A DNA stretch of 63,409 nt, counting the filler, from Olpidium bornovanus S191 (lineage: Eukaryota > Fungi > Olpidiomycota): the NCBI GenBank assembly GCA_017911155.1. It is 26 parts of 26 records of this genome, joined end to end, with 100 filler letters (N's around TTAATTAATTAA, not from the genome) between each part and the next. Parts side by side here need not be neighbours in the genome. Positions count along the whole stretch, not along the records: positions 16,735 to 18,997 come from JAEFCI010011735.1; 25 more parts are not named here. The stretch is one strand, 5' to 3'. How positions within the stretch are numbered: the stretch's first letter is position 1; the number at the start of each line of letters is the position of its first letter. The notes below the pieces were generated by a model that did no database searches, was not told where the DNA came from, and saw only the letters and a program-made list of their open reading frames with translations. The position numbers and the translations under genes were made by a program. This document shows positions 16,735 through 54,641 of this stretch, piece after piece.

Positions 16735-18002
16735 CATGAACTGTTGCGCCAGGAGCGTTATCACTCCGGACCGACCATAGGCCTGTCCGAAGCCGGGATT
16801 CCCAGAGAGTTCTCTCGGGACCTGGTCACGGAGGTGGCCGGGGAAAAGAGGTGTCTGGCGGACGGTGACCTGATCCTCGCGAACAGACAGCCCACGCTGC
16901 ACAGGAATTCCATCCAGGCGCTCAGGGCCAGGCCGACCGAGGGGATGACCATCCGGTTGAACCCCGGGGTCATAACTCCGTTCAACGCGGATTTCGATGG
17001 AGACAAGATGAGCATGTATTCTGTCATGGGGGCGAAGCAGCGGATCGGGGCGGGGAGGGTGTGCAGTGTCGAAATCAACATGCTGGACTTTAAAGATTCT
17101 AAGTTGAACTTTAAGGTCAGCCAAGACGTGATGACGGGTCTGCACATCCTGTCCCTGCTGGAGACGAAGGATATCCACCAGGGTGTGGAAGATGTTGAGG
17201 GTCGCCAGCGGTCGGGCCCTCATCAGCTCCCTGTTGCCGGCGGACTTCAATTACCGCTACCACGGCCTCGTCATAAAGGACGGCATATTCGTCGACGGTG
17301 TGATCACGAAAACCTCCTTCTGGACGGACAAAGACAGCATCCTGAGAAAGATCTGCATGTCTTACGGGGGAAGCGCCACGGTCCGGATCATGAACAGAGA
17401 TCCGGAGGGTTGTTTTGAGGTGGACCCAAAAGAGGGAGGCCAGCGTCGGGCTCTGGGATTGTTTCGGATGCGATCTCGTAGAAGAACCCAACACGGACGA
17501 TCTCAGGGTTCTGTCTGTCCACAAGTTGAAAACGGAAAGGGTCGCAGCGGAGGCCGCAGGGCCAGGGAACAGGCTGCTGAGGATGGTTTCCAGCGGAACC
17601 AAGGGCGACCGTAATAACTTGGGCCAGATAATGTGTTGCGTCAGGCAGCAGCTGGTCTTCGGTCGCCGCCCGGAGAAGCTGCCGCACATGAAGCACGATG
17701 CTTCCCCCGCGTCCACGGGTTTTGTGAGGTTGTCGTACCTCTCCGGACTGCTGCCTCACGAGATGTTCTACCACTCTCAGATGGAGAGGGAGGTGGTCGT
17801 GAGAACCGGGATCAGTACCGCGGAGACGGGCTACGCGCAGCGGATGATATCCAGGTTGGCGGAAGGTCTGACCGTCTGGGAAGACAAGACGGTGCGGGAC
17901 TGGGACGATACGATCGTGCAGTTCGGTTACGGGGAGAAGGGGTTGGACCCTTCCAGGGCCTTATCGGAGGAGACGCGTTTGCTAGTGACGTCCTCCAGGT
18001 GA
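16735..18002 (+). pseudogene. Frameshifted, intronless, compacted RNA polymerase largest subunit (Rpb1/beta'-like), probable large-DNA-virus (Nucleocytoviricota-like) relic
   Basis: Collinear motifs: ARSVITPD, NRQPTLH, PFNADFDGDKM, SQDVMTGL, SGRALIS, MVSSGTKG..NLGQI..CVRQQ, LPH..GFV..SYLSGL.PHEMFYH, TAETGYAQR, IVQFGYGEKGLDP. Frameshifts at about 16772, 17180 and 17399. No introns in 1.27 kb. Confidence 0.9.
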
Positions 18003-18048
18003 TCGCCAACAATCCGGGGAAGGGCTAACATCCGCCACCCCTCAGACC

Positions 18049-18710
18049 TGTAACGTGCGAAATACGTAATCTGCGCGTAGCGCTATCTGGAGATTAATTG
18101 TATTCGCCGTCTGGCTCTGGATCTGGGTCTGGAGTACGTGAAGTACAGGATTCTGGAAAGGTGAACGTAGCTCTAAAGGTACGTGCTATATGCGCTTTAT
18201 ATAGGCGCGGCTGCCATAGCCGGCGCCGTAGCGGATATGTGGCGTGTGCGCAGTACCGCGCGTACCGGTGCGCAATACTGATGCGCAATCTTGGTGCGCA
18301 ATATCCGGTATTGCGGCTCCGGCACTGGCGTTGGGCTCGGAAATGCTCCGAGAACGCGGTGAAAATAAGACGCAGGCTCGGAAATACTCCGAAAGCCACA
18401 GCGTGGTGGAAATTCGCCGATAATACGGCTCGGGCGCCACCACACTGGTGAGCCCACGCCTGGTGAGCCCACGCCTGGTGAGCCCACGCTCACTGCGGGC
18501 GCCACCACACTGGTGGGCCCGCGCACACACGCCGTTCTTGGTCTTGGTCTAGATCTGGAGGGTCATGTGATGTCGCGACTAGACACACTGGTGTGTCTAG
18601 TGGTCTCAGCGATTTCTGGATCACGTGACTGCCGCTCGGCAGGCTGTTCCCAAGAGGGGCTTGACGCAGCCTGAGGGGTTTGACGCCACCGTAGCGGGCG
18701 CGCCGTGACA
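18049..18710 (-). mobile_element. Solo LTR (662 bp) with 5-bp target-site duplication
   Basis: The termini TGTAACG...CGTGACA form an imperfect inverted repeat (TG...CA). AGACC flanks both sides (18044-18048, 18711-18715). Three perfect 15-mers lie at 18445-18489. TATATAAA is on the minus strand near 18196-18203. Homologous to 53638-53885. Confidence 0.9.
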
Positions 18711-18754
18711 AGACCCTCTTAAAATGCGATTGGTCCCGCGAGAGCGAGTCGTCG

Positions 18755-18997
18755 ATGGCGCAGACCAGGGAAGTCAAGCTGAGGTTCCTCGGCGCGGTCA
18801 AAAGGCACGAGAGGGACGCGCAGGCGAAACTTGACGTCGCCCTGTCTCTGTGGTTGCGTCGGAGCGGAGAATACGAGGAGGACGAAAACGTTCGGGCGGC
18901 GCGATCCAGGTTGCGCGACATCGGGAAGCTGAGAGACAGGCTGGAGCGCGAATGTTCGATTTTGCGATTACCGCTGGAACGACGTTTCGCTAACATG
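18755..18997 (+). CDS. Hypothetical helical/coiled-coil protein (3' partial), possibly part of the same viral-type insert
   Basis: Intronless ORF MAQTREVKLRFLGAVKRHERDAQAKL...; purine-rich, GC3-high codon style like the upstream RNAP relic. Confidence 0.4.
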
Positions 18998-35433: not shown

Positions 35434-36764
35434 ACGTGTCTTAGCTACGCACCGGTTCGGAATAATCTATAATTTATTATTGTAAGCGACCAGCAAAAGT
35501 GCGTCGTCAGATATGACAGGCGCAGACGACCATTCTCCAAAGCCGACAACCATGTGTCATTGATGAATACCGACCTCTCCGGTACCTGCATCTCTCGTGA
35601 CCCGCACTTTCCCATGCATCTCATCGATCTCTTTGGTGTGGCGATGATGGATCCTGAACCTCTGTAAAACACGTCGAGAGCAGCGAAGGGGGAGGATAAT
35701 AATAGATGGAACTGAGATATACCGGTACTGTCCGCCATGTTCTTGGCGACGACAGTTGAGAGCGTGAAGCCGACTCTGCATCCGTGCAGGAATGAACGGC
35801 GTTCGAGACGAACCGCAAAACTAACCTCCTTGCTACTCGAACGTTCCTCAACAATCTTGTTGATTAGTTCGTTAAAAAAGCGGTGCAGATCCTGTGCAAC
35901 AAAAGAAAGAATGAAACTTGTCGTCGCTCTAGCAGACCCGGAAATAAGCAGCCGTTGTCGTTTACCTCTGACATATTCGATTCGAACCGGAGCCAGGAAT
36001 AGTCATTAAAATCAAGGACTACAACGAGAAGGAGCCGAAGATCGTCATCATTTTCCGCCCCGCCTCGATCAGTTCGCGAGTAGTGACCGCCGGGATAACG
36101 CAAACCTGTCTCTGTCACGACGGGAAGGTACACCCTTTCGCCAGTACCCTTGTCAATCATGACCCCAAGTTTTGCTTCGATCTGCGGGCCCCTCGGCGAG
36201 AAGCAATCTTCACTACCGAAGCCGGAGCGTAGGCAGACACTCCACGGGTAGAGACGTCAGTCGTACCTCCACGTTTTCATGTGTCATATGCTTGTACACG
36301 AAATCGGAGACGAGCTTGATCGTAGGGTCTCCAGGGACTTGGCCGAACATGCAGGGCTCAAGAGGCATGCTGCTGGCATGATGATGGTGGGACTGCTGCA
36401 GCTGCACCGCCACTGACGAAGGCGGGGCAGAGGTAGCCTGCGCGGCGGCAGGCGTCCCCGCCGAGCCGGATTGCGCCGCGCCGAAGACCTTCTCCTTCCA
36501 CGGTTGCGCCACTCCCGAGCCCCATAGCGCCGCGGCCGGCGGTGCGCCCGACTGCGGCGCAGCGGCGGCCTCCTGCGGCAGAGAGGTGGGCGGCTGCAAG
36601 CGGCCGCGCCCCGGCGAAGCTTCCTCCTGGGCCTGAGCGGGCGGTGACAAGGTCCCGGCTTTCTTTTTCTTCCGCGCGCCGTCGTCGTCGCCGTCGTCGT
36701 TCCGGTGAAGAGGGGCGCCGTTCCGGCCGGCATCGCTCTGGGCGGGTCCGTGGCCACCGGCCAT
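35434..36764 (-). CDS. CET1: mRNA-capping RNA 5'-triphosphatase, fungal Cet1/Pct1 (triphosphate tunnel metalloenzyme) type, 3' partial
   Basis: PCMFGQVPGDPTIKLVSDFVY..NVE|IEAKLGVMIDKGTGERVYLPVVTET..WLRFESNMS..HRFFNELIN..KVRVTRD. Confidence 0.8.
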
Positions 36765-39675: not shown

Positions 39676-39959
39676 TTCCCGTTGCCGGTTAACAGCCTCG
39701 CGACTACGACCACGGGCGGATGGAGAGGGCTGGGAGGAGAGCGAGAGCGGCTTGCCTGCCAAGGACCCCCGCACCCCAGGCGTAACATACCAAAACTGTC
39801 CTAAGCACTTCAACGCCAGCGCCGGCCCACGACACACGCCGGCGCCGTCAAGCGCCAGCTGCCCGCCGCCGCCTCACCGTCTGCAGCGGCCTCCGCAACC
39901 GTCGTTGGCATCTTTCCGCAAAAGCCAAAGCGAGAAATCGCCTGTCGGCGCGTCGAATA

Positions 39960-40200
39960 AAGAGGCATCCCCAGGATCTGCTCCAGTAGGCCGCCGGCGC
40001 CGAATGCGAATTGTTTCTTCAGGTGATCTTTGATCTGAAGCAGTGCGGTGATGTCAGGGCCGGTAATGACCAAATCATCGACGTACAGTGCGAGGATCAC
40101 ACGGCTGTTGCCGATGGCGTCCTTCTTCACGTAGAAGCATGGCTCGCGACTCCCCGGCTAGAACCCAACGGTCCCAAGCGCAGGATCCAGGATGTCGGCC
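39960..40200 (-). mobile_element. Degenerate Ty1/Copia reverse transcriptase fragment
   Basis: GF*PGSREPCFYVKK..ILALYVDDLVITG..QIKDHLKKQF..G..ILGM contains the Copia YVDD motif and an in-frame stop. Confidence 0.88.
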
Positions 40201-43697: not shown

Positions 43698-44171
43698 TCA
43701 GCGTTTAACAGGGAACTGGATCTCGATTCTGAGTTCGTCGCCGGCGGCGGCCAGGCTGCCGCCGCCGCAGCCCGCCGGGAGCTTGACGTACACCTCGCGC
43801 GACGGGCCGTCCTGCTCGAGGCCGTGGTCGGCGAGCCACTTCACCATCCTCTCGTACGCCTCGTGGATGCGCTCCAGGGCGGTGTCGTGGACGGCGACGG
43901 CCGCGCGCTGCGGCGGCAGCGTCCGCGCCGCGAACCGGCCCTGGCCGGAGACGTCGACGGGCGCGTCGACCGGGAGGCACACCTCCACGTCAATCGGGTC
44001 GCCGCCGCTGTGCAGGACGGCCAGGCCGGGGCCGGCGGCCTGAATCCCGCGCGCCTTCGCGAACCCCGTCAGGTCGTCCCACAGCCGGCCCTGGTCCTGG
44101 AACGAGCCGAGCTTCTCGCGCAGCGAAACGACCAAGAGCGCGGGCACGTCGCGGACTTCGATGTCGGCCAT
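43698..44171 (-). CDS. GyrI-like (AraC/BmrR effector-binding) small-molecule-binding domain protein, 157 aa, intronless
   Basis: MADIEVRDVPALLVVSLR..LWDDL..GPGLAVLH..IDVEVCLPV..TLPPQRAAVAVH..IHEAYERMVKWLADHG..GPSREVYV..IEIQFPV* follows the classic GyrI-like pattern. Confidence 0.88.
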   Translation of the reverse strand: MADIEVRDVPALLVVSLREKLGSFQDQGRLWDDLTGFAKARGIQAAGPGLAVLHSGGDPIDVEVCLPVDAPVDVSGQGRFAARTLPPQRAAVAVHDTALERIHEAYERMVKWLADHGLEQDGPSREVYVKLPAGCGGGSLAAAGDELRIEIQFPVKR

Positions 44172-44204
44172 GGCGGCCGGGGGGGGGGGGGGGGGGGCGC
44201 GGGG

Positions 44205-44240
<36 letters not shown>

Positions 44241-44788
44241 CAGGGATATCGGAAACAGAGGCGGACCCAGCACTCCCACTCACTCCCCGTTCCCCACACG
44301 CGCCCCCGCCTCCCACGCGAACGGGAGCGGTGTTGGAAAATTTCTTTGCGAAAAATACGGTCAGAAAAAAAAAAAAAAAAAAATGAATTAAGCCTCCTGC
44401 GCGGGCGCTTTGCCTCCCGTTCGACCTGCGGGCGCCGGGGTTTTGAAACGGGGCCGCCGCTTGCTCCGCGGCCGGCGAAATCGCAGCGTGGACGGTCAAA
44501 ACCAATCTTCGGAGTAGAAAAACTTTTGTTGCCGGGCCGTCGACCGCGGCGCCTGCTGCCGCTGAATGCGAGAAAGCCTGCCGCGAAGCGCGGGACGGGA
44601 GGGGTGGGGGTGGGGCGGGGGGGGCGGCGGGGGCGGCGGGGGCGGCGGGGAGCGGGGGACGAAGCTCCGGGTGCAATCGGAAGCAGCGNNNNNNNNNNNN
44701 NNNNNNNNNNNNNNNNNNNNNNNNNNNNNNNNTTAATTAATTAANNNNNNNNNNNNNNNNNNNNNNNNNNNNNNNNNNNNNNNNNNNN

Positions 44789-50493: not shown

Positions 50494-51308
50494 TCATTCC
50501 AGGTGGTGAAAATGCGGCGGCAGTTGAGCCATGCGTGGGTTGACGGGCCTGGGTGGCTGCTTCTCCCGTTGGATGTCGTCCGGAAATTCGTCAGGCCCAA
50601 CGGAGGTCACCTCGGCACTTGGTGCGAAACTTCCGCCGACGGCTATCGCTGACAAAACGACCTGGTTGTGATGGGGAGGGAGGAAGGGGGGAGGGCGGGG
50701 GAGAGGGGGTCAACGGAAGCGATCGGCAAGGCGCACAAGCCGCCCTCCCTCCACGACACGATTGAAAAGATGCAGCGGGTCCTGACCTTGTTCAGAAGAT
50801 CCGCGACGCAGTAAAGAACTTCTGTCTCTTCGAAGGAGATTTTGTTGAACATGGCCGCGGCCCACACCACCCAAGTGAGCGGCCAAACGATGGTGATGTG
50901 AGCTCTCAGAAGTCTGAGCGTTGTCATCTGCTGCCTTGCGCTTCTATCTCCCTTGGAACGCAGCCGGTCCACGGCCCTGTCGATTGCAGAGGTCAGCCAC
51001 CGCCACAGCTCGGCAGTGACAAATGTCAAACATCCCAAGGAAAGCAGACACATTGGGACGGAGTAGGAGGCCGGAAGAAACGAGGCCAGAAGTCGAGTGG
51101 TCGTTGCAACCTGACGCCAAAGGTTCAGTACCACCGTTTAGCCCGGTTCGGAATAATTCTTTGAAACTCCCTTGAGACTTACCGCAGACATGCACTTCCC
51201 GGTAACAGATTGCGCCCGGCCAAGATACGTCAACTCATCGCCCTCCGGCCATAATAAGAAAGCGATTCGCAAACTTACCATTGCTCTTCGAAGCTTGCCG
51301 TTTGCGGA
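50494..51308 (-). CDS. Type-1 (microbial) rhodopsin, enzyme-rhodopsin/RhGC-like, TM4-TM7 and C-tail (5' partial)
   Basis: ..LLSLGCLTFVTAELWRWLTSAID..LRLLRAHITIVWPLTWVVWAA..ISFEETEVLYCVADLLNK|VVLSAIAV. DxxxK retinal-binding motif with the Lys codon at 50787-50789, then a phase-0 GT-AG intron at 50786..50662. Confidence 0.78.
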
Positions 51309-51408: not shown

Positions 51409-52820
51409 CAAGTTCGCGATCATCCGTGATTGGTTGTTGAAGGCGATTTCCACGTTCCTAGGCAAAGATGCCCGTATTTGAGCAAGAAACAGAGTTGCAA
51501 AAAGCAGAGGTCCAACCAGGATGTGCATGTTCACCTGGCCAGCCCACGCGGGATTTCCGGGTTCAGAACCTCCAGTTCTAGCGCGGCGCGGGGATATAGC
51601 CCCGGGACCGCCAGACGGCAGCCAACCTTATCATTTTCCAGGTCGAAAACAAAATCCGGGTCGGAGGGGCAAAAATTAAACGTGATCACGGTCGCACCGT
51701 CCGGTCGAGTTCTATGACAGGGAGGAAAGCAGCGGCAAATCAGCTGCACTGCCAACAAAAAACGCGCCAAAGCGGAAACATATTACTTACTCTTCAACGT
51801 TATAGGACATGCGGAACCGTCGTTCCAGCTGGCGAAGTTCAGCTTCGCGAGCTTCTTCGGGATTCCCCTTTTAAGTAAATTTAAAGGTAAGTCAGAAAAC
51901 GCGACTTTACCCAGCACGGTGGCACGTGTGGCTCGCCACGCACATACTCTTTCCTGCGCACGAGGCCTAAACACTGGTCTTCGAGGAACCGGCTCCCGTG
52001 GACGGATGACTGTCGTTGCAACACTTGTAGTTGCCCTTTCCTTAGCGATAGGCGGCGTCGCCGCCTTGTGGCTCCTGCTCTGCTGCACATCAAAGTATAA
52101 CGTCAGACGCCAAGCGATTGACTCGAGTTTCAAAGTATCCGTCCGTCAACCCTCTGTTTCTGGAATCGGTGGTTGTGTATGGCGTTCAAGCCGACGCGGA
52201 GAGTCTTCGCCTCTGTGCGTACCGGGCCGATCGGCCTCAAACCGCGGCCGGGTCAGATTGTTTTGGTACTGCGTGCACGACGGATGCCGGGCTCCTGGCC
52301 GTCTGGCGGTTTTCTCCAGCTGCATTTGCGGTCCTTTTGCGGTCACCGGTTGAGAAATGCTGGGTATCCGCTCGGACGGTTCCACACTATCCAACGCAGG
52401 GGCGTCGTGGCGTCCCTGCGCCTTCGCCGACGTGGCGTCGGGCAGTGTCCGCGAGTTCCTCGCGGCAGGTTGCGCCAAGTGCGCGTACGGACAGCCGTTG
52501 CCGGCGCGGCAACCACCCGGCCGGTTGAAGAAGCGGCATCTAACGTTTGCCCTGCCAGGCCTGCCGGCGAGGTCTCCAGATCCGGACGAAGTGGCATCGT
52601 CTCCAATACCCGGCGGCCGGGCAGGAGGAGGACGTCTCGAACGATTCCGACGGTCGTCACTGCGAGATTGACCGTCGTTGGCCTTGGCGGTGTCGGCCCT
52701 AGCGGTGTCGGCCCCGGTGGTGTCGGCCCCAGCGGTGTCTGCCCCAGCGAAACCGCACGCGGCGGAGTTCGGCGGAGCTGTGAACGACACGGCGTTTGTC
52801 GCGGGAGTTGCCGGCGCCAT
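51409..52820 (-). CDS. CCCH zinc finger plus RWD-like domain protein (fungal family), 3' partial
   Basis: CRFFNRPGGCRAGNGCPYAH (CCCH); TVITFNFCPSDPDFVFDL..CRLAVPGLYP..LEVLNPEIPRG. Confidence 0.55.
52687..52746. repeat. 15-bp coding minisatellite, 4 copies
   Basis: The unit GCGGTGTCGGCCCCA encodes (A/T)GADT-like repeats on the minus strand. Confidence 0.9.
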
Positions 52821-53637
52821 GGTCGCCGTCTTGAAAACCCGACGCCGCGCGTTCCCGCAGGCTCTCGACGCCGCTGGACGGGTGAGCTCTTTCCGCCCTA
52901 CTTGCACAACCTTCCTTCCCCGGAAATGCCCGCTGCCGAAACCCTTCCCTCGGCTATTGTGTTGGCGGTGGCGGCTGCGCCTGGGCTGCGCGGGTCACGC
53001 GGAGAAGGGCAGCGAACACCGAAATCTCGGCGCTGAAAAAAAAAATGAAGGAGTAAGCCTACTTCGCGGCGGACCCGAATCGCTGCAATGGAGAAAGAAA
53101 AGAGTAAGGTTTAGCAGAGTAGATGCATTTCGCAGAGGGGGTTTTCATCAATGGTACGGACCTTAAAACAATGCATTGGTGTCAGGAACACTTGGAAATC
53201 CTTTCCGGTGAACAGAGACAGAGGATGGCAGGAGGATGATTGCGTTTGGTTCCCCTCGGTTTTTGCGAGTCACGGCGAGCATATGACAACAGAACAAGGA
53301 AACCAAATCAAGGACCAAAGAAAGCTTTTGTTGTATTTAGAATAGTACAGAAAGAAAGAAGGAATACGGTAACTACTGTGAAGAAGAAAGTTTAGAGGTC
53401 CTGCGTGCCTGAAGCAATCAGAAGCTGCTTGCCTTTGGCTGATTTGGCAGACTTGGCCAACCGGCCAGAGTGCTCTTCCACAGCGGCCACATCATCTGTG
53501 GGCAATCCGGTGTCACCGGAGCTGGGAGAAGAACAAGGCCCTTAAAAGGTGGGCGAAGATTGCATGGCGGGGTACAGGAGGGCTGCTGGCAAAGTAGAAG
53601 ACAACTTGGAGGAGGAGGACGATCCCAATTGGATGTT

Positions 53638-53885
53638 TGTCACGGCGCCCGTTACGGGTGGCATCAACCCCCTCTCGGGCTGCGTCAAACCCTTCTCAGG
53701 GGCAGCCTGCCGGGGGCCGATCACGTGACTCAAGAATCGCCGAGACCACTAGACACACCGGTGTGTCTAGTCGCAACGTCACGTGACCTCTGCACTCAGA
53801 GATCTAGATTAAGACCAAGAACGGTGTGTATAATGCGTGCAAGCGTAGTGGTGATAGAGCCAAAACATCGGCAAATTCCCACCAT
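53638..53885 (+). mobile_element. Partial LTR, same family as the solo LTR at 18049-18710
   Basis: Starts TGTCACGG and aligns by eye with the reverse complement of about 18405-18710. It includes the perfect palindrome ACTAGACACACCGGTGTGTCTAGT (53748-53771) and two TCACGTGA sites. Confidence 0.85.
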
Positions 53886-54641
53886 GAGTCCGCTGGGAGC
53901 GGTGCGAGGCCTAGTGGCATGCGGAAATGTTCGAATTCTGGGTGCCTGAGACCTTTTGTAAAATTGTCTGCCAGATTGTCTTTGGACGCGACAGCGCGTA
54001 GCTCGATGGTTTTGTCCGGGACAGTGTCACGCACGTAGAGGTGCCTGATGTCAATGTGCTTTGATCTCTTGTTTATTTTTTGGCGTTCTTGCGTGATCTC
54101 AAGTGCTCCGCGATTATCGATGCAGAGGGAAACGGGTTTTGTGTTGCCAGAGATGTCGGCGAACGGTTGACGGAGCCACGTGATTTCTTTGCTGGCTTCT
54201 GTCGCCGCCATGATTTCTGCCTCCGTGGTGGAATGTGCAATTGACGCGGGACAACGAGCGTCGGCCACATGAGCTTGACGCCGATTACCCTGTTCCGTGC
54301 CCTGGCTGCCTTTGTTGCGTTTGGTGAGCATGGGGCAGTTTGCGTACCAATGACGTGCACCATTGCAAAACTTGCACGGTGGAGGATTGTCGCATTGCTT
54401 CCTAATTTTTCTGTCGCCTTCGTTGTTGCTTTTCTGTGTCTTCGTCAACTGCGGACCCGGGCCCTTCTCGTGTCTCCTTACATGATCAGCCGTCCGAGCG
54501 GCTGGCGTTGCCGTGAATGGCATGTGATCCTTCTTCTTTTTCAGCTTGAGGTCCTTGTTGATGGCAACCTCTTGCGCGATGTCCAAGGAATCGTTGTGAG
54601 CGGGATAAGCGGAGACGAGATCTGCAATTCGTTGTTCGCGC
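53804..54641 (-). mobile_element. Internally deleted Ty1/Copia element: gag zinc knuckle fused in frame to RNase H
   Basis: CKFCNGARHWYANC (CX2CX4HX4C) followed about 30 aa later by SIAHSTTEAE..WLR..IDNRGAL..KRSKHIDIRHLYVRD..VASKDNLADNFTKGL. No protease, integrase or RT in between. Confidence 0.9.

Follow-up and report, generated by a model that had tools for sequence, protein, structure and literature searches.

Gong, Zhang and Han (2020; PMC7017919) describe fundsalphaviruses, Pithovirus-related endogenous elements that they define by PolB and report from 14 fungi in six phyla. As their text presents them, these elements have an RPB1 gene split into RP1n and RP1c, carry frameshifts and stops, and lie near retrotransposons; elements of the moss Physcomitrella patens are placed within the same group. 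The NCLDV-like regions of P. patens were described by Maumus et al. (2014; PMC4083422), who proposed the RP1n/RP1c split as a lineage signature and gave 20 gene families without a capsid; in that account the regions have an affinity to Marseilleviridae, Iridoviridae and Ascoviridae, LTR-retrotransposon insertions and silent copies.

The locus analysed here, from Olpidium bornovanus, resembles the fundsalphaviruses as described in PMC7017919 in its early-diverging fungal host, Pithovirus affinity, split RPB1, frameshifts and nearby retrotransposon. It differs in that the group is defined by PolB, whereas the Olpidium contig (2,263 nt) carries no PolB, capsid or A32 gene, and Olpidium is not among the 14 hosts given there. 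The P. patens regions comprise 61 loci of 2-34 kb in a moss (PMC4083422), whereas Olpidium has yielded one 1.27-kb fragment, whose clade is sister to that of the metagenomic contig L025. We liken the fundsalphavirus and moss RP1n to the deep subclade of the window's gene by way of published descriptions and the gene order of sister contigs.

Integrated giant-virus DNA in zoosporic fungi is also the feature shared with Mycodnaviridae and Mycodnavirales (PMC13533422, PMC13524828). The Mycodnaviridae are described as basal to Imitervirales, with a capsid gene and sizes of up to 350 kb (PMC13533422), whereas the Olpidium gene groups with Pimascovirales, in trees without Mycodnaviridae. The main text of PMC13533422 mentions neither RNA polymerase nor Olpidium, and Olpidium is absent from the readable supplements of both papers. 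A literature search, with subscription papers and unreadable supplements beyond its reach, found no published report of endogenous Nucleocytoviricota or giant-virus DNA in Olpidium.

The window, by which we mean the whole stretch of 63,409 nucleotides that was analysed (positions 1-63409), consists of 26 contigs of 1.1-5.3 kb with N/TTAATTAATTAA/N linkers at the joints, so genes adjacent across a joint are not true neighbours. A preliminary description had read part of one contig as a probable endogenised RNA polymerase gene of a large DNA virus; it overlooked the composite nature of the window, the natural split that makes the gene an N-half, and the flanking LTR.

A frameshifted polymerase gene

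At positions 16735-18002 (+) lies a collinear, intron-free Rpb1-type gene in which the NADFDGD motif is intact and three frameshifts interrupt the reading frame (Table 1). Pfam places Rpb1 domains 2, 3, 4 and 5 in order across three pieces, with domain 3 under its curated cut-off; this ordered series and NADFDGD, already recognised in the preliminary description, identify the largest subunit of a two-barrel RNAP. With five intact relatives as queries, tblastn resolves four collinear segments in frames 2, 1, 2 and 3 and leaves no intron-sized gap, bearing out the three frameshifts and the lack of introns over 1.27 kb that had been claimed. The breaks fall near 16772-16777, 17160-17171 and 17392-17397, and the longest run within 15 nt of them is 2-3 nt, so that none lies in a homopolymer. 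Freedom from introns and homopolymer runs, which had been taken to set the gene apart from most host genes, proved not to be distinctive: both are shared by three long host ORFs (1212, 1764 and 981 nt), none of which has a run of ≥7, and 5 of the 26 contigs are without any such run.

The 5' part of the gene lies beyond the contig end: by tblastn, the sequence sets in near residue 279 of P0002, a relative of 731 aa, and the stop codon occupies 18000-18002. The PDB matches are multisubunit polymerases, the best being archaeal A' and Pol II/III, with Pol I scoring below Pol II. Strong divergence from cellular polymerases, noted from the outset, is evident in the last piece, for which the best PDB match has an E value of 2.7e-27 versus 2e-53 for the nearest metagenomic relative.

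Substitutions accompany the frameshifts. The window's gene is altered at 13 of the 102 columns that are invariant in seven intact relatives; in a leave-one-out control, six intact relatives were altered at 0-9 of 102-111 invariant columns, and the divergent intact relative P0010 at 30 of 132, above the window's gene. No clear excess of C>T/G>A changes was found (5 of the 13 substitutions; CpG observed/expected 0.92), and a bias of the methylation or RIP type was not seen. The sequence at 16735-18002 is a frameshifted front half of a split polymerase gene of giant-virus type and has likely lost its function.

The NCBI model on this contig, KAG5456449.1 (P0007 in our set), is titled 'MAG: hypothetical protein, partial [Olpidium bornovanus]'; this 345-aa protein, built from pieces of the contig, was the top match in the full library. 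We discarded it, since its 'intron' deletes conserved domain 3 and it also splices into an unrelated downstream ORF. With splices across the frameshifts and a 'hypothetical protein' name, the public model has hidden the viral gene. An Rfam search of the contig gave no matches. Viral sequence accounts for 1.27 kb only, the remainder being the LTR and the ORF at 18755-18997; as the related contigs are also all 40 kb or shorter, the 'giant' endogenous element that had been proposed is not supported.

Table 1. Features of the polymerase contig and of the contig that shares its LTR family
Feature	Positions	Strand	Evidence or remarks
Whole contig	16735..18997	.	2,263 nt, GC 0.587
RNAP pseudogene segment 1: RSVI.PD motif; gene runs off contig end, ~280 codons missing	16736..16771	+	tblastn
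Segment 2: shortened dock region, NRQP motif, catalytic NADFDGD	16777..17160	+	PF00623 E 9.8e-22; PDB matches; dock span
Segment 3: Rpb1 domain 3 (pore)	17171..17392	+	PF04983 E 2e-4, below cut-off; tblastn 36-47% to five relatives
Segment 4: funnel, KGDRNN clade signature, bridge helix, natural stop of N-half	17397..18002	+	PF05000, PF04998; alignments
Ty1/copia-type LTR: purine tract in front, ~80-nt tandem expansion (15-nt unit), end ...TGACA	18399..18711	+	Homology to other contig
Open frame, 81 codons, runs off contig	18755..18997	+	No Pfam match; flank without tblastx match to fetched loci
Second LTR-family copy, directly after copia zinc-knuckle/RNase H ORF	53637..54640	-	Contig 51409-54641, also with CCCH-finger ORF

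A compact N-half with intact relatives

Closest to the window's gene stand nine intact proteins from metagenomes (JGI, Logan, ENA), 695-744 aa long and 46-59% identical where measured; JGI annotates some relatives as 'subunit A-prime'. With the last piece as query, 6 proteins among 3,620 candidates stood at 50-55% identity. In a 50%-cluster library, 7 of 4,444 matches reached E 1e-30, namely the gene's own model, five family members and one repetitive nematode fragment; a search for shorter relatives gave 10 matches, the only relative among them being the gene's own model. The nine full-length metagenomic members and the window's gene constitute the inner clade, which has the motifs KGDRNN and FYH..GREG..RT, and a profile search added an outer set of 657-729 aa, ∼30-36% identical to P0002. 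Proteins of Basidiobolus, Mortierella and Neocallimastix were absent from the named matches of the protein searches, as is expected of fungal copies because decayed ones often go unannotated.

The window's gene stops 58 aa past the bridge motif, and the seven intact relatives measured all stop 58-68 aa past it; Pol II/III-like rows, where measured, continue for 465-1016 aa, with one exception at 242. Because the intact relatives end likewise, the stop at 18002 marks where a compact N-half naturally ends and is not damage. RPB1 is thus split: in the window's gene, as in every intact relative, the N-half stops past the bridge helix; a separate RP1c was seen only in sister contigs. The dock region, which is the TFIIB-binding surface in Pol II, spans 43 aa in the window's gene and 35-45 aa in the relatives; the cellular rows measured have 89-103 aa, bar one Pol III row at 42.

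A comparable split of Rpb1 occurs in ascoviruses and PM_01 (SfAV-1a, HvAV-3e), which fall in the same large clade (see below) and whose N-halves end 61-77 aa past the bridge motif in five of the six named rows measured. These N-halves are, however, longer (859-1009 aa versus 695-744 aa), retain a full dock span (100-152 versus 35-45) and are only ∼25-32% identical to P0002.

Placement among Pimascovirales

An IQ-TREE C20 tree was computed from 79 rows and 670 columns, the window's gene being read with X at the breaks and filling 403 columns. The inner clade (100/100, on a stem of 1.06) joined the outer rows at 100/100, and both sat in a 40-row clade (100/97) with nine of nine named Pimascovirales, which comprise PM_01, PM_06 and PM_08 (labels from supplement rows of PMC8575486) and two ascoviruses; Pol III formed a separate 100/100 clade. 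A second tree of 46 rows, in which Imitervirales were more numerous and a named Pandoravirales row was included, returned the inner clade at 100/100, inner plus outer at 100/99 and the large clade at 100/98; contrary rows were one Pimascovirales incertae sedis among the Pol II-like rows and one IM_09 row beside the clade (99/95). AU tests rejected a grouping of the inner clade with four Pol II-like rows (p 5e-7) or with four archaea (p 1.7e-7), and of inner plus outer with six Imitervirales (p 0.012, in a set with no Mycodnaviridae row).

Rows were hand-picked from FastTree runs of 307 and 229 rows, with phage and bacterial rows dropped. Source names are available for one Pol II row and one Pol III row, the remaining Pol II and Pol III labels following from tree position, and the trees are without Pol I, mirusvirus, Asfuvirales, poxvirus, Algavirales, Mycodnavirales and yeast VLE rows. 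Within this sampling, the repaired protein falls with Nucleocytoviricota and, among them, with Pimascovirales, rather than nesting in a cellular Pol II/III or archaeal A' clade. A Foldseek search of the P0002 AlphaFold model against BFVD agrees with an affinity to the Pithovirus, irido-, asco- and marseillevirus assemblage, the top named matches being pithovirus, solivirus, iridovirus and marseillevirus RNAPs at 19-23% identity; because the model is mediocre (pLDDT 67, pTM 0.46), these ranks are supportive only. Among Atlas clusters, the three ranked highest are viral to 79-100%. Long-branch pull is a possible contributor to the clade placement.

The ∼900-aa RNAPs of L007-type loci were excluded from the later trees, L011 being phage-like and L016 bacterial. 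The phage-like contig (L011:4704-16330) carries two large RNAP subunits beside JAB and ThiF (ubiquitin-like) genes and FolE2, and about 35 RNAPs of this ∼900-aa kind were fetched.

Gene content of sister-clade contigs

The outer clade includes two IMG/VR contigs, L025 and the contig of L024, with a giant-virus replication and transcription module. On L025 (434-14628 of a 17-kb contig) the genes are RP1c, Rpb2, RP1n, TFIIS, UDG, a 113-aa ORF, Rpb5, DUF5757, PolB and FEN1, followed by three ORFs; its ORFs are intact, and the contig may stem from an intact relative or be itself an endogenous copy. The contig of L024, in ∼33 of its 40 kb, has MutS, RP1c, PolB, FEN1, D5, DUF2738, a capping enzyme, DUF5757, RP1n and dUTPase. 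The 40-kb sister-clade contig (L295:10001-15983) further encodes a MYND finger and a truncated globin. Capsid and A32 Pfam families were absent from 31 ORFs (12 of L025 and 19 from the ∼33 kb of L024's contig), and as queries the PolB of L025 and the D5 and MutS of L024 found their own contigs only.

The killer-plasmid VLE polymerase YKP6 is a beta/beta-prime fusion. VLEs, known from yeast and zygomycetes, are comparable as Nucleocytoviricota-derived, capsid-less transcription machinery in fungi (PMC13348850). They have a protein-primed polymerase, as described there, whereas the polymerases of the sister contigs are PF00136 PolB and a D5 primase is also encoded.

Eight named genes share their order between L025 and the P. 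patens 'virus' as printed by Gong et al. 2020 (PMC7017919). The shared gene set (D5, SNF2, MTase, RPB2, RPB5, UDG, TFIIS, FEN1) is matched by L025 and partly by L024's contig, in the sister clade only. For the inner clade, motif scans of viral and metagenome contigs and of 185,579 prokaryote genomes gave no matches (one viral scan excluded TTR codons at one position), and the matches listed in profile scans were distant loci, the best at 33% identity. Because no inner-clade context was found, the gene content proposed below is drawn from the sister clade, beyond the long stem.

A copia LTR beside the gene

An LTR of the Ty1/copia type begins 400 nt downstream of the RNAP gene on the same contig. 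It matches 53637-53829 at 79% over 195 nt (E 9e-41), with 160 bits against 33.7 bits for the best of 100 shuffles. The homology spans 18399-18711 and 53895-53637, starting at a purine tract and ending in TGACA; the tract in front and the CA end we take to be LTR boundary marks. The shared repeat is identified as an LTR because its second copy directly follows an ORF with a copia RNase H tail, for which 30 of 30 Atlas matches are copia-type RNase H/RT clusters (top score 0.95). At 53807-54640 (-), a single open frame passes from a gag-type zinc knuckle directly to the copia RNase H tail and the LTR; protease, integrase and RT are missing from it, and this is probably an internally deleted copia element. 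Another contig holds a copia RVT_2 fragment at 39813-40157 (-; E 2.8e-9).

The GC3 of the RNAP gene is 0.80, and that of five other window ORFs 0.67-0.93. The tetranucleotide fit of its contig (r 0.73) is the second lowest of the 26 (0.70-0.93), with seven viral loci at -0.59 to 0.36 and the contig at 51409-54641, which bears the second LTR copy, at 0.85. Since the LTR lies near the gene and its family recurs on another contig, integration is supported; decay and a physical link to host DNA are here found together, at the level of the assembly. LTR and composition support the view that the RNAP copy resides in the nuclear genome of a eukaryote from the same bin. The identification of this host as Olpidium rests on the MAG label; the label is that of an early-diverging fungus, which agrees with the fungal source proposed in the preliminary description. 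Its central claim, a decayed and probably integrated gene of Nucleocytoviricota type, is upheld by the trees, the AU tests, the frameshifts and the LTR. Published O. bornovanus data come from non-axenic zoospores and were binned by tetramer composition (PMC7865070).

Probable origin of the Olpidium copy

The sequence data make it probable, in our judgement, that 16735-18002 is a frameshifted, likely non-functional RP1n copy left in the Olpidium nuclear genome by a Pimascovirales-related virus of the fundsalphavirus/Physcomitrella-virus group. The same viral origin and decay could instead belong to another eukaryote, a root fungus or protist binned with Olpidium; the NCBI record is marked MAG, the published zoospores were non-axenic and composition-binned (PMC7865070), and the tetranucleotide fit of the contig lies near the bottom of the range. 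We hold such a mix-up to be unlikely, however, given that the LTR family recurs on the better-fitting window contig with the CCCH-finger ORF and that GC and GC3 match the other window ORFs. Alternatively, the gene could be a relic of a separate family-level lineage, distant from the fundsalphaviruses, with the two clades joined partly by long-branch attraction and shared shrinkage. The long inner stem (1.06), the clade's own motifs, the 30-36% identity of P0002 to outer rows and the lack of Basidiobolus, Mortierella or Neocallimastix proteins among the named matches would all fit, but inner and outer rows unite at 100/100 and 100/99 under a site-heterogeneous model and have the split point and short dock in common, while decayed, unannotated fungal copies are expected to be missing from protein searches; a distant family of this kind is thus quite unlikely.

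Integration would be illusory if the contig came from an extrachromosomal virus or virus-like element in the sample and the frameshifts were sequencing or assembly errors. The intact catalytic motif and the intact relatives in metagenomes would be in keeping with this, but the gene is broken three times within 1.27 kb and never in a homopolymer, it has changed in excess at columns otherwise invariant, and its contig bears a retrotransposon LTR, all of which render such an origin very improbable. Least credible of all is a divergent cellular gene, whether a fungal Pol I/II/III paralogue or a contaminant archaeal A': although the best PDB matches are archaeal A' and Pol II/III, JGI uses the label 'subunit A-prime' and the split point resembles that of archaeal A', the AU tests reject Pol II-like (p 5e-7) and archaeal (p 1.7e-7) placements, Pol III is a separate 100/100 clade, none of 185,579 prokaryote genomes has a motif match, and Pol I, which is not in the trees, scores below Pol II against PDB.

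If a fundsalphavirus-like virus left the copy, the sister-clade contigs suggest how the intact element may have worked. Its N-half would assemble with a separate C-half (RP1c), Rpb2, Rpb5 and TFIIS into a compact polymerase for transcription of the element's own genes, with the capping enzyme beside it, while PolB, the D5 primase-helicase and FEN1 would copy its DNA. Loss of the dock region might, speculatively, permit TFIIB-independent initiation, and a capsid-less life style of the source element is an equally speculative thought. After insertion, selection would have been lost and frameshifts and substitutions would have accumulated, leaving the present copy presumably inert, and a host retrotransposon would then have landed beside it.

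The Olpidium copy thus likely extends a known kind by one further member, found in a host new to it. The 'undescribed lineage' of the preliminary description mostly falls away, in that the sister clade has the P. patens 'virus' gene order; the host and the deep subclade may be the new part. A bolder view, to which we give some credence while thinking it rather unlikely, sees in the inner clade an undescribed family of Pimascovirales-derived elements that are small, still active and possibly without a capsid. The family would have at least nine intact metagenomic members and split RNAPs among the most compact of viruses, and Olpidium, a root parasite that transmits plant viruses, would be its first identified host and offer a route by which the group came to land plants.

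Should the fundsalphavirus-like origin be correct, Olpidium, the flagellated sister of the terrestrial fungi and a vector of plant viruses, would join the hosts of Pithovirus-related fossils, so far six fungal phyla and a moss. A zoosporic fungus would then harbour a Pimascovirales-related lineage that stands, as far as tested, apart from the Mycodnaviridae, and because such fossils are tied to intact metagenomic genes, the elements they came from may persist today. What is known of endogenous giant-virus DNA in fungi would stay unchanged.

Other window features concern separate contigs. A match to mRNA triphosphatase at 35867-36256 (-; PF02940, E 6.6e-4) was considered as a second viral piece and set aside, being weak, on another contig and probably a host capping-enzyme exon. 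An intron-free GyrI-like domain at 43701-44279 (-; E 1.3e-12, GC 0.75, GC3 0.93) is a possible bacterial transfer, and 50646-51137 (-) holds a microbial rhodopsin fragment (PF01036, E 4.9e-5, just below the curated cut-off).
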